Source: Tannerellaceae bacterium
GTDB taxonomy: Bacteria > Bacteroidota > Bacteroidia > Bacteroidales > Tannerellaceae
NCBI GenBank assembly: GCA_031288515.1
Contig: JAITRG010000066.1
Span: 184-64,183, forward strand
Direction of reading: 5' to 3'
Length of the DNA stretch: 64,000 nucleotides
This document shows positions 25,106-46,403 of the stretch, one piece after another. The stretch's first letter is position 1, and each line of letters opens with the position of its first letter. The notes beneath the pieces were generated by a model. That model had not been told where the DNA came from. It saw only the letters and a list, made by a program, of their open reading frames with translations, and did no database searches. A program made the position numbers and the translations under genes.

Positions 25106-26626
25106 CACCCATGAAATAAATTTCGTCCAAGAGGATGTAAATTGGTGGGTATTGTTTACTTTAGGAGCATTCACCAAAAGAAGAATGCTATGAGTACAGT
25201 AATCTTCCAGCAAGTGATTCTCCGGGGTTGTGGCATAGATGTCCACAAGGATGTAGTGGTAGCCACGATCAGTGGCGAAGGTCTAACAACTGAAACCCGC
25301 AGTTACAAGACTTTGGAATGTCCTCGAATGAAGGTCTGGATCGTGAACGCTCGTCATATCAAGTATGTACCGGGTCACAAGACGGACAAGAAGGACAGTG
25401 CCTGGATCTGCAAGCTTCTCTTAGCCGGTTTGTTGAAGCCGAGTTACATTCCTGAGCGTGAACAGCGTGAACTTCGTGACTTGACCCGTTACCGCAACAA
25501 GCTGATCCAGCATGTGGCTTCGGAAAAGAACCGTATCGTCCGTATCCTGGAAGACTGCAATGTCAAGCTTTCGAGTGTAATGAGTAGTTTGGATGGTGTT
25601 GTGGCAACGAAACTGATAGATATGCTAATAGATAAAGGTCAGGTAACAATGGATGACATTGTTTGTGTTTACCATAAAAAACTTGAAGCCAGTCCCGAGC
25701 TTCTTTATCAAGCCTGTGAGGGTTTTATAGAAGCTCATCACGTCTATATGCTGCAGGCTATCGGCAAAGATATGGAGCAGACCGAAATTATCATAGCCGA
25801 TCTGACAGCCCGCATAAAAGAGGTTCTTGCTCCTTGTGAGAATGTCATAGAGCTTTTGCGTAAGATACCGGGATTGAACAGAAAAACGGTTGAAGACCTG
25901 ATCGCCGAGATAGGTGTGGATATGGAAGTCTTCCCTACGGAAAAGTATCTGGCTTCATGGGCAGGCTTATGTCCGGGCAATAATGAAAGCGCCGATAAAA
26001 AAAAGTAACAGGACCACCCATGGCAACAAACAGTTGAAAGCCGTAATTACGGAAGCAGCTTGGGCAGCAACCCGTAGCAAGAATACCTTTTACAGCGCCC
26101 GTTATCACCGGTTGGCATCCCGCAGGGGTAAGAAAAGAGCTTTAATAGCAGTAGGACATTCGATCCTCAAATCGGTATGGCATGTGTTGAAAGAAGGTTG
26201 TGAGTACAGGGAACCCGGTGCGGAATATCTCATCCAAAGGATAGGACAAAAAAGGAAAAACTACTTGAAGAAGGAACTGGAAGCCCTCGGTTATAGGGTG
26301 AAAATCAGCCGTGATACACCTGTTCCCAAAACAAGTTGAATCATAGAATAAGGTCGTTTTTTACTGGCCTGCTGTCTTAAAACAGCAAGAGGTCGTTTAT
26401 GAAACTGACTTCAACAGCTAAGCTGTCAAGACTGTGAGTCTATTTAACACGTGTATGAAATTTTTTCTCCTTAGCTGTTGTAAAACTATAAAATGCCGAA
26501 AGATACTAACCAACCGCATTTGTATCGCTACAAGTGCTTTCTTTTGTTTTGTCTGAACTCTACAATAATTAATTTATTTATGGTTTAAAACAGCTCTCTT
26601 TAAGGGGGAGTGCAATTAAATTTACG
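25106..26626 (+). mobile_element. IS110-family element (inactive) plus a 166-bp unassigned tail, inserted in repeat copy 2
   Basis: Insert is flanked by TATGAAA at 25099-25105 and 26627-26633; further TATGAAA copies at 26398 and 26454 make the right end ambiguous. Confidence 0.8.
25190..26339 (+). pseudogene. IS110 transposase/recombinase pseudogene
   Basis: GCGIDVHKD and KTDKKDSAWI are present, but the MESTG-type segment with the catalytic Glu is missing; frameshift at A8 (25997-26004); C-terminal AAWAA..KNTF, RRGKKRALIAVGHSIL. Confidence 0.9.
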
Positions 26627-26663: not shown

Positions 26664-27588
26664 AGTTAATTAATTCAAGTTGCTATTTATAATTTGTACA
26701 ATTTATCAAAAGTATACGCCCAGATGAACATAATGAGTTTAATCAAAAACCTTGATTTAGTGACAGCATGAATTTTTTCAGGCAAATATTTAGCGATATC
26801 GGGGAAAGCAGTTTCCACCTGTTTTCTGCCGATAGTGATAAGATATTCCGTATAGAGGTTATGGGAATTCCTGGAATTACTTTTACGGCTTGCAAGTAAT
26901 CTTATTCCATTTTCCAGCAGCATCTCTTCAAGCAAATAATCAGTATAAGTGGAATCTGCCAACACTTCGCTTCCTTCGGGCAGATTAACAAGTAACTGCC
27001 TGAACCAATCCAGATCATGTTTGCTTCCGGCACTAAAAGTAAATTCCACGAGAATTCCACCCGAAGTAACTATCATGTGGACTTTGAACCCATAGAATCA
27101 ACAGCGTTTGGAAGCGCAGCGCCCTCTGTACTTTTTTATTTTGATAATCAGGGCGTTCGCGATACGGATATTATTGTAAACACTTACAGGAAAACTGTCG
27201 ATACTATAAACGGTTTGAAGGTTCAATTCTTTTATGGCTTGTCCCGTGTGAAAGAAAAGTTCGCCAAGGAGTTCCCCGATCTGAGGCATTCGTCGATTGA
27301 AACGACTTTTGCCAAGCATATGAGGTATAAGCCTTGTACAGCGGACAAAGCAAAGGGATTTTTCAATATTCCCTGCAAAGTATCCGCCCACAAGCAATAC
27401 GACTGTGATGATTTCCGCATCGGTTGTTTTCCGGCTTTCAGGTTCTTTATATCGTCAAAAAATACGTATATTGCAACGGTTTTATTAACCATGGTCAATT
27501 TGTTTTATTGGGTATTAAGCACACCAAATATAACTTATTGACCTTTTTTATTGCTGTAATTTATAGGTAGCAACTTGAATTAATTAAT
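26664..27588 (-). mobile_element. IS982-family element with frameshifted transposase
   Basis: Terminal IRs TTAATTAATTCAAGTTGC (about 26666-26683) and GCAACTTGAATTAATTAA (about 27570-27587); ORF pieces 27232-27498, 27098-27397 and 26687-27076 contain IDSFPVSV, LADSTY, RKQVETAF. Confidence 0.85.
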
Positions 27589-27903
27589 GGCTTGGCTGAA
27601 AAGGGGAAAAGTACGATGGGCCGGTTCTTTGGTTTTAAATTGCATCCGGTATGTAATGAACGTGGAGAGTTATTGAATTTTTGCCTCATGTGTGGGAATG
27701 TGGATGACAGGAATGCAGATACAATCAATACCATATGCAAAGGCTTATTTGGCAAATTGTATGCTGATAAAGGGTATATATCAGCTTTCCTGTTTGAGTT
27801 TTTGTTTGACAACAATAGCATTCATTTAATCATCGGGATCAGGAGGAATATGAAGAACAAACTCATGAGTTTCAGGAATAGGATTCTTCTGCGCAAACGA
27901 TGA
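27589..27903 (+). pseudogene. Internal fragment of a second IS982-family transposase
   Basis: GKSTMG.FFGFKLH, GNVDDR, LFGKLYADKGYIS, RRNMKNKLM; begins exactly at the end of the preceding IS. Confidence 0.85.
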
Positions 27904-28083: not shown

Positions 28084-28722
28084 TTAGTTTGCAAGAGTTG
28101 TCGATCTAGATTCTATTACACCTGTTTTTGGAATAATATGAATGAGAAAACGCTGATTTTTGCTTTCTATTCTTTCGCGCATTGAGCCGCCTGTGCCACT
28201 ACCCGAAATTAGCACTTCACAGTTTTTTCCGAAGTCAATTCCTGAGTTTTGCCAAAAACGATTTAGGGCTAACGCCCGTTCGTAGCTTAACTCGTAATTT
28301 TGTACGTAATTGTCTTTTGATGCTTGCCCTTCGATAATGAGTAGATATTGAATTTCAGGATTTGTTTTTGTAATTTCATCTATTTGATTTTTAACAGCTC
28401 TCCCTGCTTTTTGGAGTTCTTGCAATGTGCTATAATCAATGTCATTTATGTTAGATTTTCCTGTCGGAAAATTTACGCTAATTTTCAAAATGTGTTTCTT
28501 GTAATCGGGATTATAGGCAAAATAAGTACTGTCGATATTATTGAGCGACTTCTTGATTTCTTCTATTTTTTCAAATTCCTCAAGTTTGAGTGCTTGTTCG
28601 CCTATTTTATTATGCAACAATACAATAACCAACACAAAAAGTAGCAACATCACGAAAAACAAACTCATCATTAAGTCGGAGTAACTGGTCCAGAAAAAGG
28701 ATTCTTTTTTATTTTTGATCAT
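28084..28722 (-). CDS. ZorB/MotB-like protein with OmpA-type peptidoglycan-binding domain
   Basis: N-terminal TM FWTSYSDLMMSLFFVMLLLFVLVIV with the MotB/ZorB-type Asp; IIEGQAS, NYELSYERALAL, NQRFLIHI. Confidence 0.8.
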   Translation of the reverse strand: MIKNKKESFFWTSYSDLMMSLFFVMLLLFVLVIVLLHNKIGEQALKLEEFEKIEEIKKSLNNIDSTYFAYNPDYKKHILKISVNFPTGKSNINDIDYSTLQELQKAGRAVKNQIDEITKTNPEIQYLLIIEGQASKDNYVQNYELSYERALALNRFWQNSGIDFGKNCEVLISGSGTGGSMRERIESKNQRFLIHIIPKTGVIESRSTTLAN

Positions 28723-28728
28723 AGTCAA

Positions 28729-28905
28729 TTATTTGAAATTCAACAATAATTTGATTAAATCGATATTTGTAAACCCTAAAATCAATATAGCCGAACTTGT
28801 GCAAACTACCATGATAAAGCGTTTCGTTTTTTAACTTTTTACTCAAAAATATTTGTGGGCAATACCAAACAAGCTTGTTATTGCTTTGATAATTATTCCT
28901 GCCAT
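28729..28905 (-). pseudogene. Possible decayed 58-codon two-helix membrane gene
   Basis: ATG lies 1 nt after the zorA-like stop and the frame ends at the base before the zorB-like ORF; two in-frame stops (TGA, TAA). Confidence 0.35.
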
Positions 28906-28906
28906 A

Positions 28907-30499
28907 TTAGAAAAACATATTTAGCCATTCAATAATTTTAGGAATAAGCATAGTGAGGCAAGTTATGCACATAAGAAAAACACCCGGAATAACAGTTATT
29001 TTTAGCCATTTAGGCAGTTCTTGCTCAACCGATATTTTACCACCTGTCTCTTTTGCTGTCGCCCATTTTTCGAGATTGTTTGCTAAATTGTCAATTTTCT
29101 TATTTTGGCTGGTTATTGCATCCTCAAACGCTTTTACTGATTTTTGTACTTCGCCAAGTTCAAAAAGAGATTTAACAATTTTATCCCAATCGCTTGTGCT
29201 TGCAGTTAATGCCTTGTTTTGAGTATCAATAAAAGTTCCTAACTCTTGCCGTTTGCCTTCAATATCGGTTTTTATTTCATGGAAAATATCTTCTATAGCT
29301 TTATTGTACTTTCCTACAACTCCCACCAATGCACGGTTTGCTTCATCATAGTTTTCTGCTAACCAATGCTCGTGTTTGGAATAGAATTGGCTTGCTTTTT
29401 CGATAAATTGAGTACGGTTTTCATAGGCGTCTAATTTCTTATTCAATGCTTGTACATTGACAAGATACTGATTGCAATTTTTCAGATATTCCCCGAGTAT
29501 GTGTATTTCTCCGGTACTGTTTTGTAATGCAGTAAAGAGTTTCAAGTTTTGCAGCACGAGGTCTTTTTCAGCTATTTTGCGGACAGAATCCAAAAGTTGT
29601 ACCTGCATCTTGTGCGATTCATTGACTTTCTCGAGTGCCGAGCTGAGATTTCCTGTGTTTTCGGCAAACTTGGAATTAAAATTATTCAAGTTCTTAGTCA
29701 TTTTGCAAATTGCACCCACTACATTGTCCGAAAGCGTGGGTAAGAGTTTTGCTTGTATCCAAGATAGAAATTTGTGTTTGCTGCTTTCTACAGTCGACTT
29801 TGCGGTTTTGAATTTATTTGAACCAACAGTAGTGAGAATAATTCCTAAAATACTCGAAATCATTGCTAATGCCACGCCTCCGAGTAATGCCTCAACACCG
29901 TCAACACCCGATTCACCTCCTGCGCTCAACAAATCGCCAATACCGCCGCTCAACCACAAATAGAGAATACCTATCAAAATCCCCGCCATTGTTCCTACTA
30001 ACCCCATATAAAGTGGAATAGGAATTTGTGTGTTGATTTCCTCTTCTTTAGCATCACAATTTCTATCAATAATATCTTTCATCAAATGAAAATCGCTAAC
30101 GGTTTTGTTATTTTCTAGATAATCGTTAATAGACCTGATAATGGTTTTCAACGTTGGATTGTCGTGGTTTGCTGAAATAACGCCTAATTTTAAATCACTT
30201 TTTATAATGTTAAGGTTATATTCGCCTGTAGTATTACCATTTTTGTCATATTTTTTATAACGAGAATCTTTGATATTTAGACCAATAGCCGACAGCATTC
30301 TTGCTAATTTCTCATGATTTGCATTATCAATTTCTTGATTTGCATTATCAATTTCTTCTTGGCTGTGCAGTTCATAATTACCATCTTTTTCAAGAAAAAT
30401 ACTCAAAAAATCTTCTATTTTTTTCTTTGTGTCAGTAAAAAAGCATAATTGAATAATTACAATGATTGCGACAATGAGTATTACAATAAAATAGTGCAT
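28907..30499 (-). CDS. ZorA/MotA-TolQ-ExbB-like protein with long coiled-coil tail and extra C-terminal TM
   Basis: TM1 at the N-terminus; IPLYMGLVGTMAGILIGI and GVEALLGGVALAMISSILGIILT match the MotA/ZorA TM pair; about 280-aa helical tail; hydrophobic C-terminus. Confidence 0.75.
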   Translation of the reverse strand: MHYFIVILIVAIIVIIQLCFFTDTKKKIEDFLSIFLEKDGNYELHSQEEIDNANQEIDNANHEKLARMLSAIGLNIKDSRYKKYDKNGNTTGEYNLNIIKSDLKLGVISANHDNPTLKTIIRSINDYLENNKTVSDFHLMKDIIDRNCDAKEEEINTQIPIPLYMGLVGTMAGILIGILYLWLSGGIGDLLSAGGESGVDGVEALLGGVALAMISSILGIILTTVGSNKFKTAKSTVESSKHKFLSWIQAKLLPTLSDNVVGAICKMTKNLNNFNSKFAENTGNLSSALEKVNESHKMQVQLLDSVRKIAEKDLVLQNLKLFTALQNSTGEIHILGEYLKNCNQYLVNVQALNKKLDAYENRTQFIEKASQFYSKHEHWLAENYDEANRALVGVVGKYNKAIEDIFHEIKTDIEGKRQELGTFIDTQNKALTASTSDWDKIVKSLFELGEVQKSVKAFEDAITSQNKKIDNLANNLEKWATAKETGGKISVEQELPKWLKITVIPGVFLMCITCLTMLIPKIIEWLNMFF

Positions 30500-30503
30500 A
30501 ATT

Positions 30504-31571
30504 TTATACGAATTTAATTTTTGCAGGTATGATTATAACCCAGTTATTATTATCTTTTTTCACATTACCCGGTTGGGTGGTATTTATTTGTTTCTTGTCG
30601 GTGAGATTATCTTTTGCATCGTTTTCGATAGAGCAAATACCTTCAAACCAGTTTTCATTTTTTACCACACCAATATACTCAAATTTTGCTTCATTGCTGT
30701 TAACCGCAAAAACGCGAAAGCTTGCATTTGTTTTGCTGGGTAGTTGCTCTGTCAATTGTTTATCACTTTTTGAAGCGAAATATAAAGCGTTATCGCTCTG
30801 TGGAGTATTATTTGCTTGCTGCGGCGCTTGCTGTTGTATCCCATTTCTTACTTTTTCAGATAATTCACCAAATTGCCGTTCCAATTTATTGAGTTTGTCT
30901 TCAAACATTCTGACATTGTTGTTGCTATCGCTTATAATTGGAGATCTCAGGTTATTAAACTTTTCTTTTATTCCTTCACTGAGAAAAAACACATCTTCTA
31001 CAAATTTGCGAACCAAACTATTGCGATTTACAGTAAACTGCAATTTATACCATAGAAATAAAGTCGTAATAAGTAAAATAATCACCACCAAACAGATAAT
31101 GATCAATAGCCAAAGCGTAGAGTTTTGTTGTTGCAATTTTTTAATATCCACCTCCAGTTTATTTACTTGCGAAGAAGTTTGGATTGTCTGATTTTTAATA
31201 ATTTTCTGTACGGACAATGAATTGTCATCGAGAGCCTTGTTATATTTATTTTTGCGTTTATTGATTTTGCCGGCAAGTTGCAATGCAACATCATTTGACC
31301 CATCGGGAAATAAAGATTCGATTTTGTTATAATTCGGTGCATCATTCAAATTATTAAGCGTTGCCTTTAACAATTCGGGCTTTACGCTTTTTTCGTAAGT
31401 GTCTTTAATGTAGGATTTTTCCGCATCGTTTTTTTCGATAAAAGCAATTAAATACTGATAATTAGCATAGTCCAGCAAATGATCAAAAAAGGCTTTATCT
31501 ATTTCTTTTTTCGCAACCGCCGAAATGCAGCACAAAACTAATACGCTGAATATTACTGTTATTTTTTTCAT
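30504..31571 (-). CDS. Signal-peptide, single-TM protein with coiled coil and C-terminal beta-rich domain
   Basis: MKKITVIFSVLVLCCISAVA signal, TM LWLLIIICLVVIILLITTLFLW, heptads FEDKLNKLERQFGELSEKV. Confidence 0.7.
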   Translation of the reverse strand: MKKITVIFSVLVLCCISAVAKKEIDKAFFDHLLDYANYQYLIAFIEKNDAEKSYIKDTYEKSVKPELLKATLNNLNDAPNYNKIESLFPDGSNDVALQLAGKINKRKNKYNKALDDNSLSVQKIIKNQTIQTSSQVNKLEVDIKKLQQQNSTLWLLIIICLVVIILLITTLFLWYKLQFTVNRNSLVRKFVEDVFFLSEGIKEKFNNLRSPIISDSNNNVRMFEDKLNKLERQFGELSEKVRNGIQQQAPQQANNTPQSDNALYFASKSDKQLTEQLPSKTNASFRVFAVNSNEAKFEYIGVVKNENWFEGICSIENDAKDNLTDKKQINTTQPGNVKKDNNNWVIIIPAKIKFV

Positions 31572-31574
31572 TAT

Positions 31575-34500
31575 TTAGTCTTCCTTATTTTCTATTTCTT
31601 TACTTATAGTTCTCAGTAATGTAGGTACTGCAAAGAAGAAGAATGTTTCTTCAACTTCGGAATTTTCGTCTTTGCTGTTAATCTTATTTTTCACAACATT
31701 TTCTATATCGCCTTTATTAGCAACTACTTCTTTGGCTTTGTTTATCGCTGTTTTGGGAATTGATAATGCCCGTTCTATTGATTCTGTTCCGACCTGTTTT
31801 CCAATTTTACTTTTGAGCAATTCGTCAAAAACATAAGTGAAAAACGCTGTGACTTGTGCGATTATTTTATCAATCAGCTGCGTGTTAGCCAGCAATTCTG
31901 AATATGTTTTTGTGTTGGCGAAAGAACTATCACCCAAGCCAAGCAAAACCTCGTAAGGAACATTAGCTGACGTTTCACCAGCTGTTTTTATTGTGCCTTC
32001 GCAAGTAACTTCTTTCGGATTGTTCGTGTTAGGAATGATTTCCATTTTTTTTGGATTTCCGTCATCGCCATATTTTGCATCAAATACTTTTTCAAAAATA
32101 AGTGTTGCGATTTTTTCCAACATTTCTTTTTTCCCAACGACATCCACGATACGAGAGCCATTGCCACTAAAGGTAAGATGGCGCGGCATAGACGATCCTT
32201 TTGCTTTCATTATCTGCGCCGTATGATAAATGATTGCAGCATAGAACAGTAAAAAAACAATTTTTTGATTATTGTCGTCTTTCAGCATTTTATTAAAATC
32301 AATACTTTTACCTCTTTCAGTCAAATCTTCATTGTCTTTCAGTGAAAAGAAAAAGGAAGCAAAATCGCCAAACTCAGTATTTTCATCAATAGCACTCATC
32401 GTTCTTGTTAAAATCCTAAATTCGCTAATCTGATTTTCAATCCTCGACTTGTATTTTGTAACAACTTTGCTTACATACAGCCCGAGTCCGAAAAGATCGT
32501 TTGCAGCAAAGCGAAATGAGGTTACAAAATTCGGTTTGCTGTCTTTAACAAAAACTACATCGGTAGTTCCTCCGCCAATGTCAATAGATACAAGGTCTTT
32601 TATGTAGTCTTTGTAATCCAGCAAATTGCTGTAATAATAGAACGGAGCAAGCGATTCTGTAAGTTTTTTGCATTTGTCGACAACTTTGTCTTCTGAAAAA
32701 TACTTTTTGTATGCCTCTGTCCATTTTTCTTCAACTTCCCCTAAACGAGTTGAGTTCATACTTAATGGATAAGTCCAAATTATTTTCGTATTCGCCAAAT
32801 CACCATTGCCAAAAGCAACTTTGTTGCGCATTAAATAGCACAAATTATCAATATAATAGCCAACTTGATCTATATCCGATTCCCATTTCAACTGTGTAAC
32901 GGGCATGCCATTGTAGACAGGGACATTTCTTTTGTCGAAAGGCAAAATAATATTGGTGTGTGCAAACGGCAATTTCAGTTCCGTAGTTGCATTATTCGCC
33001 ACTATTAATGCCGTGCGTGTAGGAAACTTGACTTTGATATTTTTCGCTTTGTTGAACCCGATATGTTCGGGAATAAAATCAATATCGGCAACTAATCGCG
33101 TTTGACAAACTCTATCGCCCGGATTTACAAGCCACGAAATTTGCTCGTCTTGGTCTGTAATATCAAATGCTGTTATATTGCCATTTGTACTTGTTTTGTA
33201 TGCAATATGCGTGTTAGAAGTGCCAAAATCGACTGAAAAAGTAAAATTCACATTTTTACTAACGGGTTTAAGCACAGGAATTATTATTCCACTTATATTA
33301 TTGTCTATCAAGATTTTTACACGATCAAACTCTTTTTTTTCTAATGCATAAGTGGTACAAACATTGTTAGCCGGGTCAATATTGTTGCGAGTGATTTTAT
33401 CATTTGTTTCATTTAAATTAATTTTCTCTGATTTGTTGTAAAAATAAGCTGATAACTGCTTTATTTCATTGAATTCGTGAAATAAGCCGAAACGATAAAA
33501 AGATCTTTCTGCATTTTCAAATTTCACTCTTGGGAAAATCATAAAATCAGTTTCACTGCCAAGCGAAATAATACTTTCTAACTTGTAATCTTTAACAAAT
33601 TGAACTACACCTTTTTTGACAGGGATTGACAGGATCACTTTGATTGAACTGCTACCATCAATTCTGATCATTTTCTTCAATTCTTCTACTGAAAAAAACT
33701 CAAAAAATTTATCTTTTAATGGCAGCAAAATACACTTATCGCCAGCGTTGGTATGATTGCCTGAAAAGTAGTATTTTTCGATTATTGGTTTTGGTAGTTG
33801 AATTATTTTGTCTTCCAGAAAATCTTCGGCAGTAAGCCACGAATAATGAGTGCCGTCAGGGAGAATTTCATGATTATTTCCTAAAACTTGTCCCTTCCAT
33901 ATTGAATTGCTGTCGAGTTTCCAATTCTCAATTCCAGGTGCAGTGCCACCAAGAATTAAAGGCAAATGAGCTGTTTTTGCAGGAACAGAAGGCTGTACAA
34001 CAAAATCACTTGTATTAGCCACATCGGCAGGATTGTTCTGTAAAATAAAAAGTTCATAGCCGCAAACAGCAGGATAAATATTGTTGCCGATTTTAAGCTG
34101 CGTATAATCATTCATATTATTGGGTAGATCCGCGATACGTGCTACCCGGTTTGTTGGTATTTGAGAGATCAGATACTCGAAAAATTCAGGAAATGCATTG
34201 GAATTTTTGTTTGTTTTAATCCAGGTATGCAAGTAATCTTGAAATCTAAGACCGCGCTGCGATAATGGAAGAATACCACTAAAAGCGAAGTGATTTTGGC
34301 TTAATTGAATTGCGGAAAATGTAGTTTCTTCATTATTGTTGTTTTTATTGAAAAAAGTGCCATCTACTTTGGTAAATTCAGATTCAATAATTCCTGCGTG
34401 ACGATTTTTTATATTTGCAGCACTAAAAAACAATGTGCGTGGCGAAGTGCCTCCTATTATTTTGCCTGTGTTTTTATGTTTAAGAAAATAGAGTTCTTTC

Positions 34501-34928
34501 ATATTTTGTAAGTTTAATGCAGCAGAATCGCTCTCTAAAAACAAATTGATAGTACTCTTCAAACAACCGTCAGGCATACTATTGAGCATATCTATATCCC
34601 ACTCAATACATTGTAATATGGTGGTGTGTTTGGCGAAATCAAAAAAGATTTCGCCAATATCCAAACTGTTAGATACAATTTGCTGATACGCTCTCAAAGC
34701 ATTCGTCCCCTTTTTAGCCACTTCTGCAAAGGCGGTCTTAGTCAAAGCTATACGGGCAAATGGCGAAGGTATGGAGGTTGGTTCGTTTGTTGAGTTTGGA
34801 TTCGAGGGTGGAATTTGATCTATTTCGCTTGTGCTGTAGCCTTTTGTGTCACCCCAATCTTGAATAGTAGCGGACAATGTACCTGCGCCTTGCGTTAGGC
34901 TTGTATTTAATCTGAAAATATATGACAT
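31575..34928 (-). CDS. 1117-aa protein with C-terminal actin/Hsp70-fold ATPase domain
   Basis: Phosphate-1 FSVDFGTSNTHIA, phosphate-2 SIDIGGGTTDV, adenosine LTFSGNGSRIV, connect-2 NPKEVTCEG; N-terminal PTSIPSPFAR. Confidence 0.8.
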   Translation of the reverse strand: MSYIFRLNTSLTQGAGTLSATIQDWGDTKGYSTSEIDQIPPSNPNSTNEPTSIPSPFARIALTKTAFAEVAKKGTNALRAYQQIVSNSLDIGEIFFDFAKHTTILQCIEWDIDMLNSMPDGCLKSTINLFLESDSAALNLQNMKELYFLKHKNTGKIIGGTSPRTLFFSAANIKNRHAGIIESEFTKVDGTFFNKNNNNEETTFSAIQLSQNHFAFSGILPLSQRGLRFQDYLHTWIKTNKNSNAFPEFFEYLISQIPTNRVARIADLPNNMNDYTQLKIGNNIYPAVCGYELFILQNNPADVANTSDFVVQPSVPAKTAHLPLILGGTAPGIENWKLDSNSIWKGQVLGNNHEILPDGTHYSWLTAEDFLEDKIIQLPKPIIEKYYFSGNHTNAGDKCILLPLKDKFFEFFSVEELKKMIRIDGSSSIKVILSIPVKKGVVQFVKDYKLESIISLGSETDFMIFPRVKFENAERSFYRFGLFHEFNEIKQLSAYFYNKSEKINLNETNDKITRNNIDPANNVCTTYALEKKEFDRVKILIDNNISGIIIPVLKPVSKNVNFTFSVDFGTSNTHIAYKTSTNGNITAFDITDQDEQISWLVNPGDRVCQTRLVADIDFIPEHIGFNKAKNIKVKFPTRTALIVANNATTELKLPFAHTNIILPFDKRNVPVYNGMPVTQLKWESDIDQVGYYIDNLCYLMRNKVAFGNGDLANTKIIWTYPLSMNSTRLGEVEEKWTEAYKKYFSEDKVVDKCKKLTESLAPFYYYSNLLDYKDYIKDLVSIDIGGGTTDVVFVKDSKPNFVTSFRFAANDLFGLGLYVSKVVTKYKSRIENQISEFRILTRTMSAIDENTEFGDFASFFFSLKDNEDLTERGKSIDFNKMLKDDNNQKIVFLLFYAAIIYHTAQIMKAKGSSMPRHLTFSGNGSRIVDVVGKKEMLEKIATLIFEKVFDAKYGDDGNPKKMEIIPNTNNPKEVTCEGTIKTAGETSANVPYEVLLGLGDSSFANTKTYSELLANTQLIDKIIAQVTAFFTYVFDELLKSKIGKQVGTESIERALSIPKTAINKAKEVVANKGDIENVVKNKINSKDENSEVEETFFFFAVPTLLRTISKEIENKED

Positions 34929-34932
34929 GATC

Positions 34933-36435
34933 TTAATGAGTTTTAAGGGTTAGTAATTTTTCAGTAGCACGTGAAAAGAGTAAGAGAAATTTTTGCGATT
35001 CCGACAGTGCTTCGTCAATACTTCCGTGTATATCGACAAGTATTTTCAGCACCCTCTCCCAATCTTTGTTGAATCGAGAACCATTCCACAAGTCTAATGT
35101 ACCTTTGATAAATTCATCAGCCCTCGACATTTCAAGTTTGAATGGGCTGAAACTACGGGCTTGGGCTTCCATTTCGATTAACCAATCCACATAATTTTTT
35201 TGGATAATCTCAAGTGATTGTAATTCATTTGAGCGAAAAGCACTATCAAAACCTTTACGGATAGCATAAACAGCAGATAATCCCGTTTTGTCAAAATGAT
35301 TACCACTATCTTTTTGAGCAATTTTATCGGTGATTTTTACGGTTTTCGGATTGTTATCTTTTATTGCATTGTAGCCCATATATTTAGCAAAAAGTAAAAA
35401 TCTTGATAGCGGTTCAACAACAAGATTTTTTGTTGACTGATGTAGCATATTGAAATCAGATTGTGTTTCGTCACTTATGCCAAATTCTTTGTATGTAGTA
35501 GCGTGGCTATTGCTATTGTTGGTAATTGTAAAACTATTTACTGGCAATTTTGCGAAATTAAGAATTGCCAGTGCCGAAGCCATTTCTACAAAGTGAGCAG
35601 GGTCAGTTTGATTTGCCCCACCTTTACAGTGCGGGTAAGTACTTGGTTTTGTATCGCCAATATAATATAACATATCTAAATGATTTTGTTCATCAATGTA
35701 ATAATTCAATGCGGCTTTTGCCTTGTCGTTCCAATCATTAGCATTGACAGTACTGTTATCATTAGCATCTGCGTCTGCAACTTGATAATAGGGTAAAACA
35801 GTAATTGCGCCAATCGGGGCATTCTTAATCGGACCCCATTGCCCTGTGTTTTGTGTGCGTGTTTTATGCAAAAGTTTCCGCAAAAGTGGAAATCCACTTG
35901 CACCTGTTCCACCAAAAATAGAGGAAATGATAAAAATACGGTCGCCTGTTTGAAACTGATTGGCAAAAGCTGTGAATAAATCGTTGTTCTCAAATTGATT
36001 TTGAACCACACAGCCCATATTAGGATTTCCCTGAAAACCATGACTCATATCCATTTCCAATGTTTCACGCGAAAAAAGCATATCTACCAATGCTTTATTT
36101 GGGTCATCCAACTGACTATAATTTATAAAATCATCAAACCTTACATTTTGCTGATCCCATTGCAAACAAAACTGCCATGCACCATTCACTTTCAATAAGT
36201 CTATTTTTGTTTTGAAAAACTTGCAGTCATGGCTTGACATATTTTCATTTACCCTGATATAATTGTCAACAAGTTTTTTTACCTGAACATAATCGCCGTT
36301 CTGTACATCGCGGTCGATAATGATTGGTATAATAGTGTCGAATGCACAATCTACGCCACTTGATAGCAGCATTATAAGCGATTTAAGAACACGAGAACCT
36401 GTCCCGCCTATTCCAAATATATATAATTTTGCCAT
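34933..36435 (-). CDS. Divergent tubulin/FtsZ-superfamily GTPase (Tubulin_2-like)
   Basis: T1 loop GIGGTGSRV, T3 GFQGNPNMG, T4 signature FGGTGASG; start MAKLYIFG at 36435. Confidence 0.85.
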   Translation of the reverse strand: MAKLYIFGIGGTGSRVLKSLIMLLSSGVDCAFDTIIPIIIDRDVQNGDYVQVKKLVDNYIRVNENMSSHDCKFFKTKIDLLKVNGAWQFCLQWDQQNVRFDDFINYSQLDDPNKALVDMLFSRETLEMDMSHGFQGNPNMGCVVQNQFENNDLFTAFANQFQTGDRIFIISSIFGGTGASGFPLLRKLLHKTRTQNTGQWGPIKNAPIGAITVLPYYQVADADANDNSTVNANDWNDKAKAALNYYIDEQNHLDMLYYIGDTKPSTYPHCKGGANQTDPAHFVEMASALAILNFAKLPVNSFTITNNSNSHATTYKEFGISDETQSDFNMLHQSTKNLVVEPLSRFLLFAKYMGYNAIKDNNPKTVKITDKIAQKDSGNHFDKTGLSAVYAIRKGFDSAFRSNELQSLEIIQKNYVDWLIEMEAQARSFSPFKLEMSRADEFIKGTLDLWNGSRFNKDWERVLKILVDIHGSIDEALSESQKFLLLFSRATEKLLTLKTH

Positions 36436-36460
36436 ATATTTTTCATTAGGTGATTTATAA

Positions 36461-36904
36461 TTATTTATATGATTTACGAAACAGGAAAGGTACATTCCCG
36501 TGTATATTAATAAAAATCAGTTGTATTGCCACTGAAAAAACAAGACAATAGACAAAAGACCACAAAAGATTTATCAGAGCAAATCCCACAAAGTTTTCGA
36601 AACTATATGGTAAGTCCTGATTTTGTTCGGCATAAATTCCATACAAAGTGTTGTTGGATAGCGTATAAGCAATAGCAAAACTGATAATACACAGTAGAAG
36701 CACTGTGATAAACCAAGCGAGCAAACGAAAAGTAAGTGGCTTTTGTGCTTTGAACAGGTAGAAAATAATCATACCCAACACTGTAACTGCCAGCGTTGCA
36801 ATACCAGTTGAGGTATAAATACCTGCATCGTAAAGATTATCGGAAAAACCTTCAATATAGTTTGAACCAAAAAGTTCGTAGAATAGAGAAAGAAAATCGT
36901 TCAT
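36461..36904 (-). CDS. Small multi-TM membrane protein
   Basis: Three or four hydrophobic segments in 147 aa; sits in-operon between the vWA and tubulin genes. Confidence 0.75.
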   Translation of the reverse strand: MNDFLSLFYELFGSNYIEGFSDNLYDAGIYTSTGIATLAVTVLGMIIFYLFKAQKPLTFRLLAWFITVLLLCIISFAIAYTLSNNTLYGIYAEQNQDLPYSFENFVGFALINLLWSFVYCLVFSVAIQLIFINIHGNVPFLFRKSYK

Positions 36905-36935
36905 AATGAAAAAATATTATGTTATTGTTATTTAA

Positions 36936-38330
36936 TTATTTATCTATTGAAATTGTACATTCAAAAAAGTATTTATTATCGGGATAAATGATTTTATACG
37001 CTTCTGCAATACCTGCTACCCAATAGTTTAAACCGAATGTTTTGCCTTCTGTTTTTTCCTGCGAAGTATCGTCTTCGGTGCTGCTGTTGATAATCCATTG
37101 TGGTATTTGTTTATTCAGTACAAATGAAACATCGGAAACAGCTTTTGTTTTTGCCTCCAATACAATGATATGAGTGGGTTTTGCGTTGGCAATACGATTT
37201 TTATCGTTAGCATTAATTTTCACAGAGTCTATCGGAAAAATTTCTTTCACAATAAAATTATTGGTAGTAACTGTATAATTTGCAGGATTTGTCAGATAAT
37301 CGTTTTCTGTTTGCACATTGCTGTAGTTCACTGCTACAGCAAATTGAATTCTATCTACTCCCCGCATTAAATCTACATCTTTAATTCCGTGAATGTGGGT
37401 TAATTTTGTTTTGTCGCGGTCAGGTTTGAAACGCCCTTTGTTACAGGTTGACTGTAGAACAGAATAATACAAATCTTTCGATTTTTTGGAAAGCAAAGTA
37501 TATTTATTTTCAAAACCTTCTACTTTGTTGGCTTTCAGTTCTATATTTTTATTAAAATCATCAAGAATTTCCTGATTTGCAATTACACAGATATAATAAG
37601 GTCTGTTTCCTTTGATATAATACCCTTTGTCGTCGCCAGTAAAAGGATAGTATTTGCCATCAAATTTCGATTTCATTTTTACAATGGTTGTGGCAAGTGG
37701 CACTTTATCGTTTTTCCATTTCGAGAGAAATGCGTCTTTTGTTAAACTTTTTTCATCCAAAAGCAATCCTATGGCATCGCTTGAGCCATGAATGGAATAA
37801 ATACAGTCGGAAAACAAAATAGAAATAGAGTTGTTGCCAGTTTTGTCCAAAATCATTTTGAAAATTTGATTAAGATTAGTGCTTTGCCACATTTCTTTTT
37901 CTTGTCCGTTCCGCCATTCCAGTTCAATATTTTGCGCAAAAGCTGTAAGGTCAATTTTTGCAGTATTTTCAGATTTGATTTTTTGTTGCTTCTTTTTTGT
38001 TAATTCAGGTTGAGGATTGAGTCGCAGTTTATTGATTTGCTGATTGATAAAAAACAGATTAATACTGTCTTCATCGTAATGATATTTGAGTAGCACCAAC
38101 AAATCGCGAATTGCGCCTTTGAACTCGGTTTTGCCCTTCACATAGCCGTCCATACTGCCGCTATTTTCGATATAAACATTGACAATAGGAGCTGGCTTAG
38201 CAACAGTAAAGTCGGCAGCGGCTGCTGTGTCTTTCGGTTCTGATTTATCGCCATCCGATGAAGATGGTTTGCCATTGCCACAAGAACATAAAGGCAAGGC
38301 AACAAGTGTGAAAATTAAAAGTTTATACAT
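36936..38330 (-). CDS. vWA-like lipoprotein
   Basis: Lipobox LPLCSC; MIDAS-like VNVYIENSGSMDG, STNLNQIF, ILFSDCIYS. Confidence 0.7.
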   Translation of the reverse strand: MYKLLIFTLVALPLCSCGNGKPSSSDGDKSEPKDTAAAADFTVAKPAPIVNVYIENSGSMDGYVKGKTEFKGAIRDLLVLLKYHYDEDSINLFFINQQINKLRLNPQPELTKKKQQKIKSENTAKIDLTAFAQNIELEWRNGQEKEMWQSTNLNQIFKMILDKTGNNSISILFSDCIYSIHGSSDAIGLLLDEKSLTKDAFLSKWKNDKVPLATTIVKMKSKFDGKYYPFTGDDKGYYIKGNRPYYICVIANQEILDDFNKNIELKANKVEGFENKYTLLSKKSKDLYYSVLQSTCNKGRFKPDRDKTKLTHIHGIKDVDLMRGVDRIQFAVAVNYSNVQTENDYLTNPANYTVTTNNFIVKEIFPIDSVKINANDKNRIANAKPTHIIVLEAKTKAVSDVSFVLNKQIPQWIINSSTEDDTSQEKTEGKTFGLNYWVAGIAEAYKIIYPDNKYFFECTISIDK

Positions 38331-39560
38331 AGTTATTGAATTTCATTGCTGTCCCGTTAAAACCACAAATAGTTTTTTATATATTTGAAATGCAGTTAGT
38401 TACAGATGTTTTTCGATTAAACAGGTTCCAGTTTTCACCTTTGCTGTTCTTAAGAGGACGTCCAAAAAATTTTAAAACTCATTTGAAAGACCTCTTCAAC
38501 AAAACTAATTTTTAATATAACAAAGAACGATGTGAACCTAATGAACCAAGTTTATTTAATTATTCTTTAATACTCCCTTTTAACAGAGCACTAATGATTG
38601 AATTTAATTTATTAACTGTTCGAAAACTATATGTGTTGTTTCCGGATTGATAGTGTTTGTATCACTTTGCATTACCTTTTGTTTCCTTAAAGCAGAAGCT
38701 CTTGAACATGACAAACTCCATATATTTCTTTCGCTTGCAACGTTCTCTGATATTTCTGGAAGATTCCTGCAAGGGTTCAATAATGATTCTTATTAATATT
38801 TCCACCATAATAGCATTTTTTTAACGAGCACAGTTTATTTTTTAGTAGTATTTGCAAGCAGTTATTTTTGATCTATTTTATTTTGTTTAATCAATAAGTC
38901 GTACGTGATTATCGCATCTACAAAATTATTGAAATTTATTGTATTGCAGACGATTTTAGCAAAAAAATGAGCATGAGATCAAAAAAATCAATTACAGAGT
39001 ATGTAAGTAAGGAAAGAAGCGCAATCGATCCGGTAGCCTACCTGATAACGGGATGATCACAATCACTATTTGCTTTCATCTCGGGACTCTACACAATTTT
39101 AAACATTACTATTTGTTTTACGCTCGCTATCACCTGAGTAAAGAATTTCCGACAATTATTTATGACTATTGCTAAGAGTAGATTTGAACGCCAGCCTTTT
39201 TCTTTGCTTTGATATTCTGGTAAGTAAAGCCAAAACTCACCTTATTGGCAGTTGAAGGTACTGCAATCTTTATAGTTTGGCATTTCTCCGTTTTGCGAAG
39301 CGTCGATATAGGTTAGCTTGAAAAAGGCTGGCTGGAGTGAAGCTGTTACGTAAGAAGGATAAAAAGCAGGGTGGCTCATTAAACGAACGTTTAATGACAA
39401 ATAATTCCCTTGGCTACCTGCATAATCCTTTCCAATCGGCGTCCCCGGATTCATTCCCCAGTATAAAAAACAACCTTTTCAAGGTGCCGGACAAGGATGC
39501 TGGCACGCCTGCACCTCCCGTTCTTTAATGAACTACTTAAAAAACAAATAGTATGCGACA

Positions 39561-39898
39561 ATGAAGAAAACAGTATTTACTCCTATATATGGTTACACTG
39601 CTTTGTTCTTGCATTAAGAACAGCGAGGCATTGCTTGAAGACACTCCGGTGGAGGTTGCTTTTGTTGGTAATTCCCTTGGGAGAAGTGATCTGGGGATAC
39701 CCGCGCCACGGACGCTACATAGACGGATGGGGGATGAGATGGGCATTTATATATATGCTCCCCGCCAGCGTGACCGCTTTGAATAATACCTATAAGTACA
39801 TGGTTACTTCTGCTACTGGTACCACGAGCCCGTACGATAATGCCAATACCCTTTATTATCATATTGATGGAATGGGGTTCGATTTGTGGCCTACTATC
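39561..39898 (+). pseudogene. Frameshifted fimbrillin-family lipoprotein remnant
   Basis: Across frames: lipobox LLCSC, GDEMGIYMLPA, YKY.VTS..G, NTLYY..DG..FDLW; truncated by an IS982 end. Confidence 0.55.
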
Positions 39899-39948
39899 TG
39901 TGCTTTTGATAAATTGTACAAACTATAAATAGCAACTTGAATTAATTA
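39899..39948 (+). mobile_element. IS982 3'-end remnant, inverted relative to the copy at 26664
   Basis: CTTTTGATAAATTGTACAAACTATAAATAGCAACTTGAATTAATTA is the near-identical reverse complement of 26667-26710 and encodes the same ..FDKLYKL* end. Confidence 0.85.
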
Positions 39949-39968: not shown

Positions 39969-40009
39969 AATGCACCGAAACTACTAATAATAAAGAGTTT
40001 CGGGGCATT
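39969..40009 (-). terminator. Displaced original tRNA-Cys terminator
   Basis: AATGCACCGAAACT...AGTTTCGGGGCATT hairpin with an A run on + (U tract on -), adjacent to the att copy. Confidence 0.6.
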
Positions 40010-40025
40010 GTTGAGGTTCCTGGCG
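40008..40025. repeat. att site, distal copy (18 bp)
   Basis: TTGTTGAGGTTCCTGGCG is identical to 46398-46415, which overlaps the tRNA-Cys 3' end. Confidence 0.92.
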
Positions 40026-40202
40026 AACCTCTTTTTCTTTATTTTACTTATCTATTCAATAAAAGTTGTATTGCATAATAATCTGATTATTAGAGTGTTT
40101 TTTATTTATCAGAGAAAATAAAATTAAACGAGATAAAAAATTGTAGTACCATTGTAGTACCAAATAAAAAGAACCTCTATCTTTGTAGTACCAATCAAAA
40201 CA

Positions 40203-41537
40203 ATGAAAAGTATGTCAGCTACATTTATTTTGAGAACAGATAAAAACGAAGGATATGCGACCTTATACGCTCGCATCCAAAACAGAGTACCTAAAATCAA
40301 TATCAGGGTATCTACGGGTTTAGAGGTCGATATAAAGGAGTGGAATAAGTCTTTGACCGGCGCAAAAGCATTAACAGTATTCAGGAACGGTAAAGGAAAA
40401 GAATTGTTTGTTAAGCTGGATGCCATTTCCTCAATGATTGACGCTTTTATAAAAAATGGCGTAATAATTACTTCCGAGATGGCAAAAGTCCGAGTACATG
40501 AAATTGTGTATGCCGAACAGATTGCAGCGGAAAAAGAACGTGTTGAGGCTGAGGCCAAAGCCTTGGAAGAAGAACAGGCTACCAACTTTAACGATTTTAT
40601 TACTCAATTCATACATGAATGTGAAAGTGGTAAGCGAAAGAAGAAAGGAGGTACTACCAATGTATCACCTGGAACAGTAAAAAGCTATAAAGGCTTTCAG
40701 GCCCAATTCAAAGCATATCAAGAGATAAGACTTAGAGTTATTGACTTTTCAGACTTGACGGTAAATTTTTATAATGACTTCCGATTATTCCTGACTGATA
40801 AAAGATACTCCCCGAACACTATTGCTCGAATGGTGAAGGTATGCAAGACAGTATGTTATGCAGCCGAACAACTAAAGTTAATGGATGCCGGTAATGTCCG
40901 TGCCGGATTTGATGTTATTTATAAAGATGTTGATAATGTCTATCTAACAGAGGAACGCATACAGGAACTTTACGAGTACAATTTATCCAACCGTCCTGCA
41001 TGGGAAAAGGTGAAAGATGTGTTTATAGTTGGCTGCCTAACCGGACAACGCGTTAGTGATTACAAGCGTATCAATTCAAATATGATTATTACCCTGACTG
41101 ATGGGAACCGCTATATCAAACTAAAGCAGGAGAAGACAGAAAACATAGTCTATATTCCTTTGGATTATCGTATAGAGGCTATTCTTGATAAATACGACGG
41201 AGAGTTGCCAAAGGTTTACGATCAGAAGATAAACGACCACATAAAAGAGATTGGCGAGGATTTGGGATGGACTGAAATAATAGAATTTGACGAACAACGG
41301 GGAGTAATGGCGTACACCGCAAGAAAGCGTTTCTGTGACCTGTTGAAAACCCATACATGCAGGAGATCTCTCGCAACAAACATGTATAAAACCGGTGCTT
41401 CGCTGAGTTCTATCATGGCCATAACCGGACATGGTTCGGAGCAGCAATTAAAAACATATCTCAAACTGAACGAATCAGAGAAAAGCATGTTGGCGGCGAA
41501 AGAGAGTTATTTCACGAAATTAAGGACAGTAAAATAA
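40203..41537 (+). CDS. Tyrosine recombinase/integrase
   Basis: Catalytic GQRVSD, KQEKT, HTCRRS, ITGH, TYLK; SAM-like domain YSPNTIAR. Confidence 0.95.
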   Translation: MKSMSATFILRTDKNEGYATLYARIQNRVPKINIRVSTGLEVDIKEWNKSLTGAKALTVFRNGKGKELFVKLDAISSMIDAFIKNGVIITSEMAKVRVHEIVYAEQIAAEKERVEAEAKALEEEQATNFNDFITQFIHECESGKRKKKGGTTNVSPGTVKSYKGFQAQFKAYQEIRLRVIDFSDLTVNFYNDFRLFLTDKRYSPNTIARMVKVCKTVCYAAEQLKLMDAGNVRAGFDVIYKDVDNVYLTEERIQELYEYNLSNRPAWEKVKDVFIVGCLTGQRVSDYKRINSNMIITLTDGNRYIKLKQEKTENIVYIPLDYRIEAILDKYDGELPKVYDQKINDHIKEIGEDLGWTEIIEFDEQRGVMAYTARKRFCDLLKTHTCRRSLATNMYKTGASLSSIMAITGHGSEQQLKTYLKLNESEKSMLAAKESYFTKLRTVK

Positions 41538-41546
41538 TAACCAGTT

Positions 41547-42437
41547 ATGAATGAGTTTAAAGAATTTATTGATGCAATTCCTACCTATAAATACCATCCT
41601 TTTAAAGGATATGCTTGGACTGACGAAACATTGACTAACCCCGTGATGGATGAGTTGCAAGCTAAGTTTAAAACATGTTTGTGTAAGTTTGAAGAATACA
41701 TTTTTTCACTTGATAAAAATGATAGGACAACAATAATAGAAAAAACAATTATAGAATTAATTGAAGCGGCATTGAGAGCAGAATGGTATAGGTTAACCCA
41801 TGAAGAAACTTCTACTGCTGATGAAAAGTTTTCAGGAGATATACTTGAAATGACACTACATAATGGGATCAAACATTTAATGATCTCAATGAAAGAGCTA
41901 AAAATAGCATACTCTACAGATTTTGTAAGCCGGCTAAATAATATAGCCAATAGCGAAGTAGAATATCGCTCTAAGCTGTTTTGGTTAAAGGCTGGAAGGA
42001 ACCTTACGAAAAAACCAATCCTTCTTTCATATCGCTATAAGCTGTTTTGGTTAAATGCTATATTGAGGATTATATTCCGTGAAAAGACGTCATCTCAATC
42101 CAATAGTGATAATATCAGTTTTGACAGTACCATTATAGATAAGGTTTATAATGAATGTAATGGTAAGTTATGGGTAAGCATTGAGAAAGATGCTTTCATA
42201 TCAATGCTAAACACTGGAATCCTGACAATTCAAATCAGGAAAGGTAATAAACAACGCGTCATCGCTCTATTTAATCGTTTAGGTATGCTGATAGAAAATA
42301 AAACTCAATGGGTGAAAACAGTAGAACAGTCTTTAGGTGTTGGTATTAGACTAAATAGGGTTCTAAAATTAGATGAAATCAATAGTGATCAAAACAAAGA
42401 ATTTAATCGCTTTTTAGACGGAATATATTCATTATAA
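41547..42437 (+). CDS. Hypothetical cargo protein
   Basis: 296-aa AT-rich ORF directly after the integrase; no motif recognised. Confidence 0.6.
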   Translation: MNEFKEFIDAIPTYKYHPFKGYAWTDETLTNPVMDELQAKFKTCLCKFEEYIFSLDKNDRTTIIEKTIIELIEAALRAEWYRLTHEETSTADEKFSGDILEMTLHNGIKHLMISMKELKIAYSTDFVSRLNNIANSEVEYRSKLFWLKAGRNLTKKPILLSYRYKLFWLNAILRIIFREKTSSQSNSDNISFDSTIIDKVYNECNGKLWVSIEKDAFISMLNTGILTIQIRKGNKQRVIALFNRLGMLIENKTQWVKTVEQSLGVGIRLNRVLKLDEINSDQNKEFNRFLDGIYSL

Positions 42438-42502
42438 TATATCAGGCAACTTTGCCTGACTTTGCCTGATAAAATAATTCATAACGCATTGATATTCAGA
42501 TA

Positions 42503-42510
42503 TATCTTTG
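42503..42510 (+). promoter_or_regulatory. -7 promoter box for the xis/replication operon, flanked by (ACT)TTGCCYGA repeats
   Basis: TATCTTTG; repeats at about 42448-42470 and 42526-42553. Confidence 0.45.
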
Positions 42511-42621
42511 CGTTATTTTTTTGTGTTTGCCCGAATCGCCCGACTTTGCCCGATATAACTTTGCTGGTAAGAAGATAAGGAGGTGCGCACCCTGACTTCA
42601 TAATAATTTAAAAATCAAATT

Positions 42622-42924
42622 ATGGATAGATTAAAAGTAAACCAGCGAGACGTTATATTGGATTTCTTTTCTCCAATAATTGACACAATTGCAGATAAGG
42701 TAGTTGAAAGAGTATTGGGTGCAACATCCAATAAAGAGCCGAAATACTATACACGTAAGGAGGTAGCCGGAATACTACACATTACGTTACCTACGTTGTC
42801 TCGTTTGACAAATAACGGAGTATTGACATGTAAACGTATTGGTAGTCGAATATTATACGATGCTAATACTATTGATGATGCGATAAGGAGTAAAGTAATC
42901 TTTAAATACCGGAGGGCAAAGTAA
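42622..42924 (+). CDS. Excisionase-like HTH protein
   Basis: YYTRKEVAGILHITLPTLSR..GSRILYDANTI (HTH_17-like). Confidence 0.85.
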   Translation: MDRLKVNQRDVILDFFSPIIDTIADKVVERVLGATSNKEPKYYTRKEVAGILHITLPTLSRLTNNGVLTCKRIGSRILYDANTIDDAIRSKVIFKYRRAK

Positions 42925-43256
42925 TGAATAAAAGAAAAAAGGCAGCCTCATCGACTACCCATCCTCTTAATCAGTATGACAAAGATAATAGTTTCAGGTC
43001 ACAGTACCAAAGGGTTTATCAATCATTTAAGGAGCGCCCTAAAACGATGTTGGAAGTATCCATTGAGACCGGAATACTACGCGCTAATATTTGCCGGTAC
43101 ATTGCCGATATGGAAAATAAAGGCTTGATTCAGCGTCTTTATAAGGCAGAGGACGAACATACTAAGTGTACGGCAGGATATTATTCTACTGATGAAACTC
43201 TATTTACAAAACCTGATGTTTCACGATTAAATTTATTTGACGATGGAAGAATATGA
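42924..43256 (+). CDS. Small winged-HTH-like protein
   Basis: PKTMLEVSIETGILRANICRYI motif, common in Bacteroidetes integrative elements. Confidence 0.7.
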   Translation: MNKRKKAASSTTHPLNQYDKDNSFRSQYQRVYQSFKERPKTMLEVSIETGILRANICRYIADMENKGLIQRLYKAEDEHTKCTAGYYSTDETLFTKPDVSRLNLFDDGRI

Positions 43257-44778: not shown

Positions 44779-44799
44779 AAAAAATATGTTTTAAATGAA

Positions 44800-44862
44800 C
44801 GCCCAAATCGTCCGTATCGTCCAAAACATAAAAGGAGTTGGACGTAACGGGCGAAATGGGCG
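44800..44862. promoter_or_regulatory. Putative replication origin with 3+3 inverted hexamer iterons
   Basis: CGCCCA-3-CGTCCG-3-CGTCCA, AT-rich centre, TGGACG-3-CGGGCG-3-TGGGCG. Confidence 0.55.
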
Positions 44863-46400: not shown

Positions 46401-46403
46401 TTG

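Follow-up and report, generated by a model that had tools for sequence, protein, structure and literature searches.

What does a bacterium do with a set of genes that places a predicted ion-driven motor beside two NTPases of cytoskeletal folds? The question is raised by seven genes, here named g1 to g7, at positions 28084-38330 of the 64,000-nucleotide stretch of Tannerellaceae DNA analyzed here (the window), which an initial annotation had described as a candidate new Zorya-like system. We read this operon as a self-contained, horizontally mobile, and envelope-spanning machine coupled to an ion motor and probably defensive in function, and we give this reading a probability of about 40%. The most likely role would be to protect the cell from invaders, for example phage or other DNA entering from outside. 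As described later, the locus is better named an FtsZl1-ASKHA cassette with a stator-type motor than a Zorya-like system. The locations of the features are collected in Table 1.

The seven open reading frames (ORFs) in the ORF listing of the window are intact and all lie on the minus strand. Spacing is tight, with 4 nt between g3 and g4, 3 nt between g4 and g5, and 4 nt between g5 and g6. The GC content is 0.31-0.39 over 28-39 kb, compared with 0.41-0.52 in most of the remaining window. The co-orientation, close packing, and AT-richness that had been noted for the locus are therefore confirmed. Since the lengths of all seven products are those of full-length homologues, the genes are judged to be intact, and since the same gene order recurs in about 80 sampled loci of other genomes, they are not chance ORFs. 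In the survey of operon conservation suggested with the initial annotation, the genes are co-conserved. The ORF of g3 extends over 34933-36495 (520 aa), but its homologues begin at Met21, which gives a product of 500 aa starting at 36435. The start codon of g7 is probably the ATG at 28722.

The g3 product matches Tubulin_2 (E = 8.4e-5) and Tubulin (E = 0.007) in Pfam. PF13809 is also precomputed for the g3 protein itself and for its homologues, and an NCBI homologue is named "tubulin-like domain-containing protein". The motifs GIGGTGSR, GFQGNPN, and SSIFGGTGASG are invariant. A broad g3 profile searched against the Protein Data Bank (PDB) gives 26 matches, each weak (E 0.05-2.6), and all of them are FtsZ, tubulin, or CetZ. 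Neither FtsZ_C nor Tubulin_C is matched in Pfam. On these motifs and profiles, g3 is a Tubulin_2/FtsZl1 GTPase lacking both of the C-terminal domains, as the proposed tubulin/FtsZ-like identity had anticipated. No match to g3 is found in a collection of phage genomes.

The second NTPase is located in the C-terminal half of g4. In the AlphaFold2 model of g4 (predicted local distance difference test score, pLDDT, 84), residues ~560-1010 give MreB, the Hsp70 nucleotide-binding domain, Ppx/GppA, and Arp as the top Foldseek matches in the PDB, with E values down to 4e-8. The matches in the viral structure library BFVD are Hsp70 and actin. A g4 profile matches Hsc70 at the phosphate-2 motif, and Pfam adds a weak match to FtsA. 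Residues D567/G569/T570, E758, D783/G785-787/D790, and F920-G924 are invariant, and the phosphate-1, connect-1 Glu, phosphate-2, and adenosine motifs (DFGTTNTH, DIGGGTTD, FSGNGS) are conserved without exception. The model and the motifs together identify this half as an ATPase of the ASKHA (actin/Hsp70/MreB) fold with intact catalytic motifs. The actin/Hsp70-fold assignment made earlier for the protein is thus correct for this half. Residues ~1-550 are also confidently modeled, but no fold match is found for this N-terminal half in the PDB or BFVD. An invariant peptide, TSIPSPFA, stands just after the disordered N-terminus and could be a docking motif. In at least ten protein clusters, g3 and g4 are naturally fused into a single polypeptide, which indicates that the two NTPases act together.

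The motor pair is formed by g6 and g7. Seven ZorB models of PADLOC match g7, the best being ZorB1 (E = 4.8e-13), and Pfam OmpA is matched at E = 5.5e-5. In NCBIfam, the ZorB1 score is 25 bits against a cut-off of 400 bits, and generic peptidoglycan-binding/MotB-like models score equally. The Asp residue in SYSDLM and the OmpA-like motifs are invariant among 56 homologue sequences. These comparisons indicate that g7 is a MotB-type subunit, not specifically ZorB, and agree with the MotB/OmpA subunit with an ion-channel Asp that had been predicted.

For g6, no MotA match is found in Pfam and no significant match to a ZorA hidden Markov model (HMM) in PADLOC, where the best model, ZorA3, covers the tail only (E = 0.26). 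A full-alignment profile searched against PDB sequences retrieves only coiled-coil proteins (apolipoproteins and methyl-accepting chemotaxis proteins), because the tail dominates the profile. The AlphaFold2 model (pLDDT 72) gives a consistent fold; the best 50 Foldseek matches in the PDB are all TolQ, ExbB, ZorA, or MotA (probability ~1.0, E 7e-4 to 9e-2). TolQ is the best of them, while ZorA (8qyd) is among the top three and has the longest alignment among the 50 matches listed. Residues P162, Y164, G166, T170, G173, A212, S216, G219, and T223 are invariant and lie within the two pore helices, which carry invariant GLxGT and S/T motifs. Judging from the model and the conserved residues, g6 and g7 correspond to the A and B subunits of stator units of the MotAB/ExbBD/TolQR type. 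The pore helices are followed by ~255 helical residues of coiled-coil character that end in a conserved transmembrane (TM) helix. The tail thus comes back to the membrane, whereas that of ZorA is free. The proposal of a MotA-type subunit carrying a long tail of helices is therefore upheld. The label "Zorya-like", in contrast, is too specific, since g6 is as similar to TolQ/ExbB as to ZorA and g7 falls far below the ZorB1 cut-off. As a separate observation, positions 30312-30353 inside g6 hold a 21-nt tandem duplication in perfect register, encoding EIDNAN/QEIDNAN in a variable cytoplasmic region.

The remaining proteins are predicted to belong to the envelope. In g1, the lipobox Cys17, E55/S57/S59, and D175 are invariant among 29 homologues, and the ExSxS motif together with the downstream Asp is similar to a MIDAS site. 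Only one of the 29 matches Pfam VWA_2 (E = 0.012), and the g1 profile finds no match among PDB sequences or in Pfam. The gene occupies the position of the COG2304 vWA genes in the FtsZl1 operons described by Makarova and Koonin (PMC2875224). The vWA identity is thus plausible from the ExSxS motif and the operon position, though unproven; of the "vWA lipoprotein" named earlier, the lipoprotein part stands firmly and the vWA part only weakly. Three hydrophobic segments can be read from the sequence of g2, for which no family match is found in Pfam, PADLOC, or NCBIfam. The g5 product is arranged as an N-terminal signal or anchor, a variable region, a TM helix at ~152-175, a cytoplasmic coiled coil, and a small C-terminal domain, with conservation confined to the C-terminal ~60 aa.

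Relatives of g3 are found in at least 574 species in a scan with one genome per species, mostly in Bacteroidota (Bacteroidales, Flavobacteriales, and Cytophagales). The g3 family exceeds 4,462 clusters at 90% identity, and the g4 family comprises 673 clusters at 50% identity (E <= 1e-30). The presence of each gene was counted with profiles iterated over the ORFs of 84 fetched loci, where only loci with enough flank were considered. Both g1 and g2 accompany g3 at every locus (71/71), g4 does so essentially always, and g5 at 57 of the 63 loci. The motor pair is present at 47 of 63, so that about 25% of the related cassettes are motor-less. This distribution defines g1-g5 as the strictly co-inherited core and the stator as a common but not universal part, contrary to the initial annotation, in which the A/B pair was taken as a Zorya membrane core. 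The motor-less loci are mainly from Spirosoma and other Cytophagales, plus one cyanobacterial plasmid; g1-g5 are kept in L038, L049, L059, L061, and L068 (Spirosoma) and in L087 (a Picosynechococcus plasmid). The MotA/MotB pair is replaced there by additional g5-like bitopic proteins, several of which contain WG-repeat or TM2 domains. We considered whether these extra downstream genes of the Spirosoma loci and cyanobacterial plasmids are diverged MotA/MotB genes, and rejected this since they encode g5-like bitopic proteins.

Complete relatives carry additional hydrolases with export signals. An exported retropepsin-like (DTGAS) lipoprotein is encoded downstream on the same strand at 42 fetched loci (36 of the 63 with enough flank). 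At 21 loci, a nuclease with a signal peptide is encoded at the 3' end of the operon; SNase, Endonuclease_NS, and EEP nucleases, which are unrelated to one another, alternate in this place. Such swapping of nonhomologous effectors is characteristic of conflict systems. In some relatives, an FtsK-gamma DNA-binding protein and a membrane protein with DUF6804 are encoded as well. In the window, tblastn detects no remnant of these protease and nuclease genes, and the corresponding place is occupied by transposase fragments. The copy in the window has lost the hydrolase genes of the 3' end and may retain only part of its function.

The cassette is mobile. In the window, two IS982-like remnants bracket the 12.3-kb AT-rich segment with the operon, and this segment adjoins an integration hotspot at tRNA-Cys. 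Elsewhere, the cassette is present on cyanobacterial plasmids and on nine IMG/VR contigs, with five integrases among the flanks. One IMG/VR contig (L095) carries portal-like and tail-fibre-like genes at 4411-6786, just upstream of the cassette, and another locus (L092) an integrase at 4412-5617, immediately upstream. It follows from these flanks that the cassette can travel as prophage or island cargo. Single loci occur on contigs labeled Leptospiraceae, Williamsia, and Acetatifactor and on an archaeal metagenome-assembled genome, and the distribution within Bacteroidota is patchy.

Part of this architecture has been published. FtsZl1 neighborhoods were tabulated in 2010 in supplementary tables, with membrane remodeling as the proposed role (Makarova and Koonin, PMC2875224). 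The arrangement is vWA-FtsZl1-B7(~525-550 aa)-MotB in cyanobacteria and DR_0540-DR_0539-FtsZl1-MotA/TolQ/ExbB-OmpA in Deinococcus, where DR_0540 and DR_0539 are hypotheticals, and one Magnetospirillum operon includes an Hsp70-like gene (PMC2875224). The tables contain FtsZl1-vWA-MotA/MotB neighborhoods, and the initial annotation was correct in pointing to this work for divergent FtsZ-like families with vWA and OmpA neighbors. The operon in the window shares with them the tubulin-like family, an upstream gene at the vWA position, and the motor pair; g6 and g7 fit the pattern of an OmpA/MotB-like gene together with MotA/TolQ/ExbB or B7. It differs in the short g3 (500 aa), after which a distinct ASKHA protein of 1117 aa is encoded (the two being fused in some genomes), in the presence of the bitopic g5, and in the exported protease and nucleases of its relatives. 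It also lacks the P-loop GTPases, the kinases, and the B1-B6 proteins that occur in the tabulated operons, and the A/B pair was not identified in 2010 as a stator-type motor. The FtsZl1/Tubulin_2 family was still treated as uncharacterized in a 2023 paper. We found in the literature no functional study of the cassette, as had been expected, and no link between Zorya and tubulin-like proteins. The claim of a new system was thus overstated, a cassette of this kind having already been outlined by bioinformatics. The features not described before are the giant ASKHA partner (separate or fused), the identification of the A/B pair as a motor, and the modules of exported protease and nucleases. A plasmid partition system of the TubZ or ParM type was also considered and rejected, since it would not account for the periplasmic and membrane parts or for a location that is mostly chromosomal.

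How might these parts work together? In ZorAB, a stator-type motor serves as an envelope sensor in defense (PMC11946911, PMC11890865). In the proposed mechanism, g6 and g7 would form a peptidoglycan-anchored stator unit of 5:2 composition that is driven by ions. The periplasmic side may be read or acted upon by g1, together with the protease where present. The membrane proteins g2 and g5 and the membrane-returning tail of g6 may recruit g3 and g4 as a pair to the inner membrane, in a manner similar to the tethering of FtsZ by FtsA. When the envelope is disturbed, ion flow or rotation would change, which in turn would trigger nucleotide-dependent assembly of g3/g4 and thereby locally remodel or seal the membrane, while the exported hydrolases would attack whatever had entered the periplasm. 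The defensive role is favored on three grounds: the cassette is mobile, its nucleases are exchanged for unrelated ones, and ZorAB provides a precedent for an envelope sensor.

Several observations weigh against the defensive reading. Since a quarter of the cassettes are motor-less, motor-based sensing cannot be the mechanism in all of them. Whereas the effectors of Zorya are cytoplasmic, the nucleases here are exported. The 5:2 assembly, the polymerization, and the contacts between the parts are all predictions. Among the seven operon proteins, only g7 matches any PADLOC defense model. Around the cassettes, only about 10% of 135 sampled neighbor proteins match defense models, a modest share that is not decisive for a defense-island association, and the other matches are to ordinary housekeeping families. 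The same flanks are found in many Spirosoma species, which looks like vertical inheritance and is unusual for defense genes. Finally, the contig is from a termite-gut metagenome, and the public runs found to hold the sequence are termite-gut metagenome DNA only.

The main rival of defense is a physiological, non-immune remodeling of the membrane or envelope. The FtsZ/FtsA-like pair and the TolQR/Pal-like motor would act as a mini-divisome that constricts, tethers, or buds membranes, perhaps for maintenance of the outer membrane or for the production of vesicles that carry lipoprotein hydrolases; we regard this as possible, with the odds against it. The pairing of a tubulin-fold GTPase with an ASKHA-fold ATPase mirrors FtsZ and FtsA, and the weak FtsA match of g4 agrees with it. 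The TolQ-like and TolR/MotB-like motor subunits, the peptidoglycan-binding domain, and the periplasmic lipoprotein resemble Tol-Pal (TolQR), as does the best fold match of g6. The protease and nucleases found as accessories are either secreted or lipid-anchored, the type of cargo that Bacteroidota sort to vesicles. The same role has been assigned to FtsZl1-vWA-OmpA operons (PMC2875224), and the common Spirosoma flanks and the mostly defense-free, partly housekeeping neighborhoods are also as expected for remodeling. However, none of the proteins belongs at the sequence level to FtsZ, FtsA, TolQ, or TolR, and g4 is three times the size of FtsA, with an N-terminal half of 550 aa that is unmatched. 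The cassette is mobile and non-essential; it is patchy, has moved between phyla, and resides on plasmids, in integrase islands, and on a prophage-like contig, while the segment in the window is AT-rich and bracketed by insertion sequence (IS) remnants. The swapping among three unrelated nucleases is also hard to explain for a housekeeping machine.

A true new subtype of Zorya, in which the motor senses phage entry and the tail recruits g3/g4 in place of ZorC/D against phage DNA in the cell, is improbable. The long helical tail on the MotA-fold subunit, the MotB-like subunit with a channel Asp and a peptidoglycan-binding domain, the mobile and accessory nature of the genes, and the nucleases associated with the operon are all shared with Zorya, and the ZorB1 match of g7 and the long alignment of g6 with ZorA would suit such a subtype. 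Against it, the weak ZorA match of g6 is confined to a tail that returns to the membrane, and g7 is matched equally by generic models. ZorC, ZorD, ZorE, ZorF, and ZorG are all absent, with g1-g5 giving no PADLOC match at E <= 1, as the initial annotation had remarked. The motor is partnered here instead by two NTPases of cytoskeletal folds together with a lipoprotein and a pair of membrane proteins; it is dispensable in about 25% of the cassettes, and the nucleases of the relatives are exported. A different comparison is offered by the Agl-Glt machinery of Myxococcus, which combines a TolQR-like motor with the actin homologue MreB, a GTPase, and a coiled-coil protein, and has CglB, a vWA lipoprotein, as adhesin. 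Parts of the same types are present in the cassette (a motor, an ASKHA ATPase, a GTPase, a coiled-coil membrane protein, and a vWA-like lipoprotein). Motor-coupled vWA force transducers have also been proposed, and vWA genes beside TolQR-like motor genes reported (PMC12204202). In both, the gene of a 5:2-type motor lies in synteny with that of a vWA-type envelope protein, and force is proposed to be transmitted across the periplasm. Nevertheless, a force-transducing adhesion or surface-motility module is very improbable here. Non-gliding Bacteroidales of the gut and termite gut are among the hosts of the cassette, which is also found on plasmids and prophage-like contigs; how its nucleases and protease would serve motility is not obvious, and no Glt or Gld homology is seen in Pfam or NCBIfam. 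Moreover, the vWA proteins of those systems are inner-membrane-tethered, or replace the B-subunit, or are outer-membrane adhesins, and neither system has a tubulin-like partner.

Returning to defense, a bolder proposal, possible but with the odds against it, is that the cassette is the first recognized member of a new mobile class of envelope immunity, in which an ion-driven 5:2 motor and a periplasmic vWA-like lipoprotein control a tubulin-fold/actin-fold NTPase pair at the inner membrane and deploy exported protease and nuclease effectors, so that phage or other foreign DNA is stopped at the envelope. If this is true, it would give the orphan FtsZl1 (Tubulin_2) family its first function. That family has been without a known function for ~15 years, and the cassette offers a compact version of it with identifiable parts in many species. 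A defensive role would extend the use of a stator as an envelope sensor beyond Zorya and would imply a prokaryotic immunity built from cytoskeletal NTPases with periplasmic effectors. If the role is membrane remodeling, the cassette would be a portable mini-divisome, bearing on vesicle formation in Bacteroidota and on the evolution of FtsZ/FtsA-type and Tol-type machines. The link to defense is circumstantial, the architecture is partly published, and the copy in the window is without the 3' module.

Table 1. Locations of the operon genes, of related features in other genomes, and of neighboring elements in the window
Feature	Location	Strand	Size and description
g1	36936-38330	-	464 aa; lipoprotein with MIDAS-like ExSxS (ENSGSM); putative periplasmic vWA-like protein
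g2	36461-36904	-	147 aa; small multi-pass membrane protein
g3	34933-36435	-	500 aa; FtsZ/tubulin-like GTPase, Tubulin_2 (PF13809) / FtsZl1 family
g4	31575-34928	-	1117 aa; unmatched N-terminal half and C-terminal ASKHA ATPase
g5	30504-31571	-	355 aa; bitopic membrane protein
g6	28907-30499	-	530 aa; MotA/TolQ/ExbB/ZorA-superfamily subunit with helical tail and C-terminal TM helix
g7	28084-28728	-	212-214 aa; MotB/ZorB-like subunit with single TM helix and OmpA-like domain
g3-g4 fusions, examples	P0279, P0269, P0273, P0275, P0276, P0278 and others		1,540-1,640 aa
3' protease/nuclease modules in relatives	L003:17663-18824; L012:17715-20258; L016:20055-20861; similar loci		
IS982-like transposase fragments	26687-27903		directly downstream of g7, where relatives carry protease/nuclease genes
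Second IS982-like remnant	39497-39948 (ORF 39497-39928)		upstream of g1
Tyrosine integrase	40203-41537		in the 6.4-kb element
HTH_17 excisionase-like	42622-42924		in the 6.4-kb element
D5_N/DUF5906 primase-helicase	43237-44778		in the 6.4-kb element
DUF6371 with Zn-ribbon	44884-46059		in the 6.4-kb element

Both IS982-like fragments downstream of g7 end in ...FDKLYKL in the ORF listing, and a 25-nt repeat is common to the downstream and upstream remnants (27562-27586 and 39924-39948). Beyond the upstream remnant, a 6.4-kb integrative element (40008-46418) is inserted at tRNA-Cys (46403-46474, minus strand), with a 21-nt direct repeat of the 3' end of this tRNA gene at its two boundaries (40008-40028 and 46398-46418). 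The operon was considered as cargo of this element and the idea was rejected, since the attachment repeats bound only the 6.4 kb, which end ~1.7 kb from g1. On the other side of the operon, the coding sequence of an IS110-family transposase is divided between two ORFs that overlap (25142-26008 and 25914-26339). Repeats of the TGTAGTACCA type are present near both ends of the integrative element (40140-40200 and 46325-46369) and may be arm-type recombinase sites.

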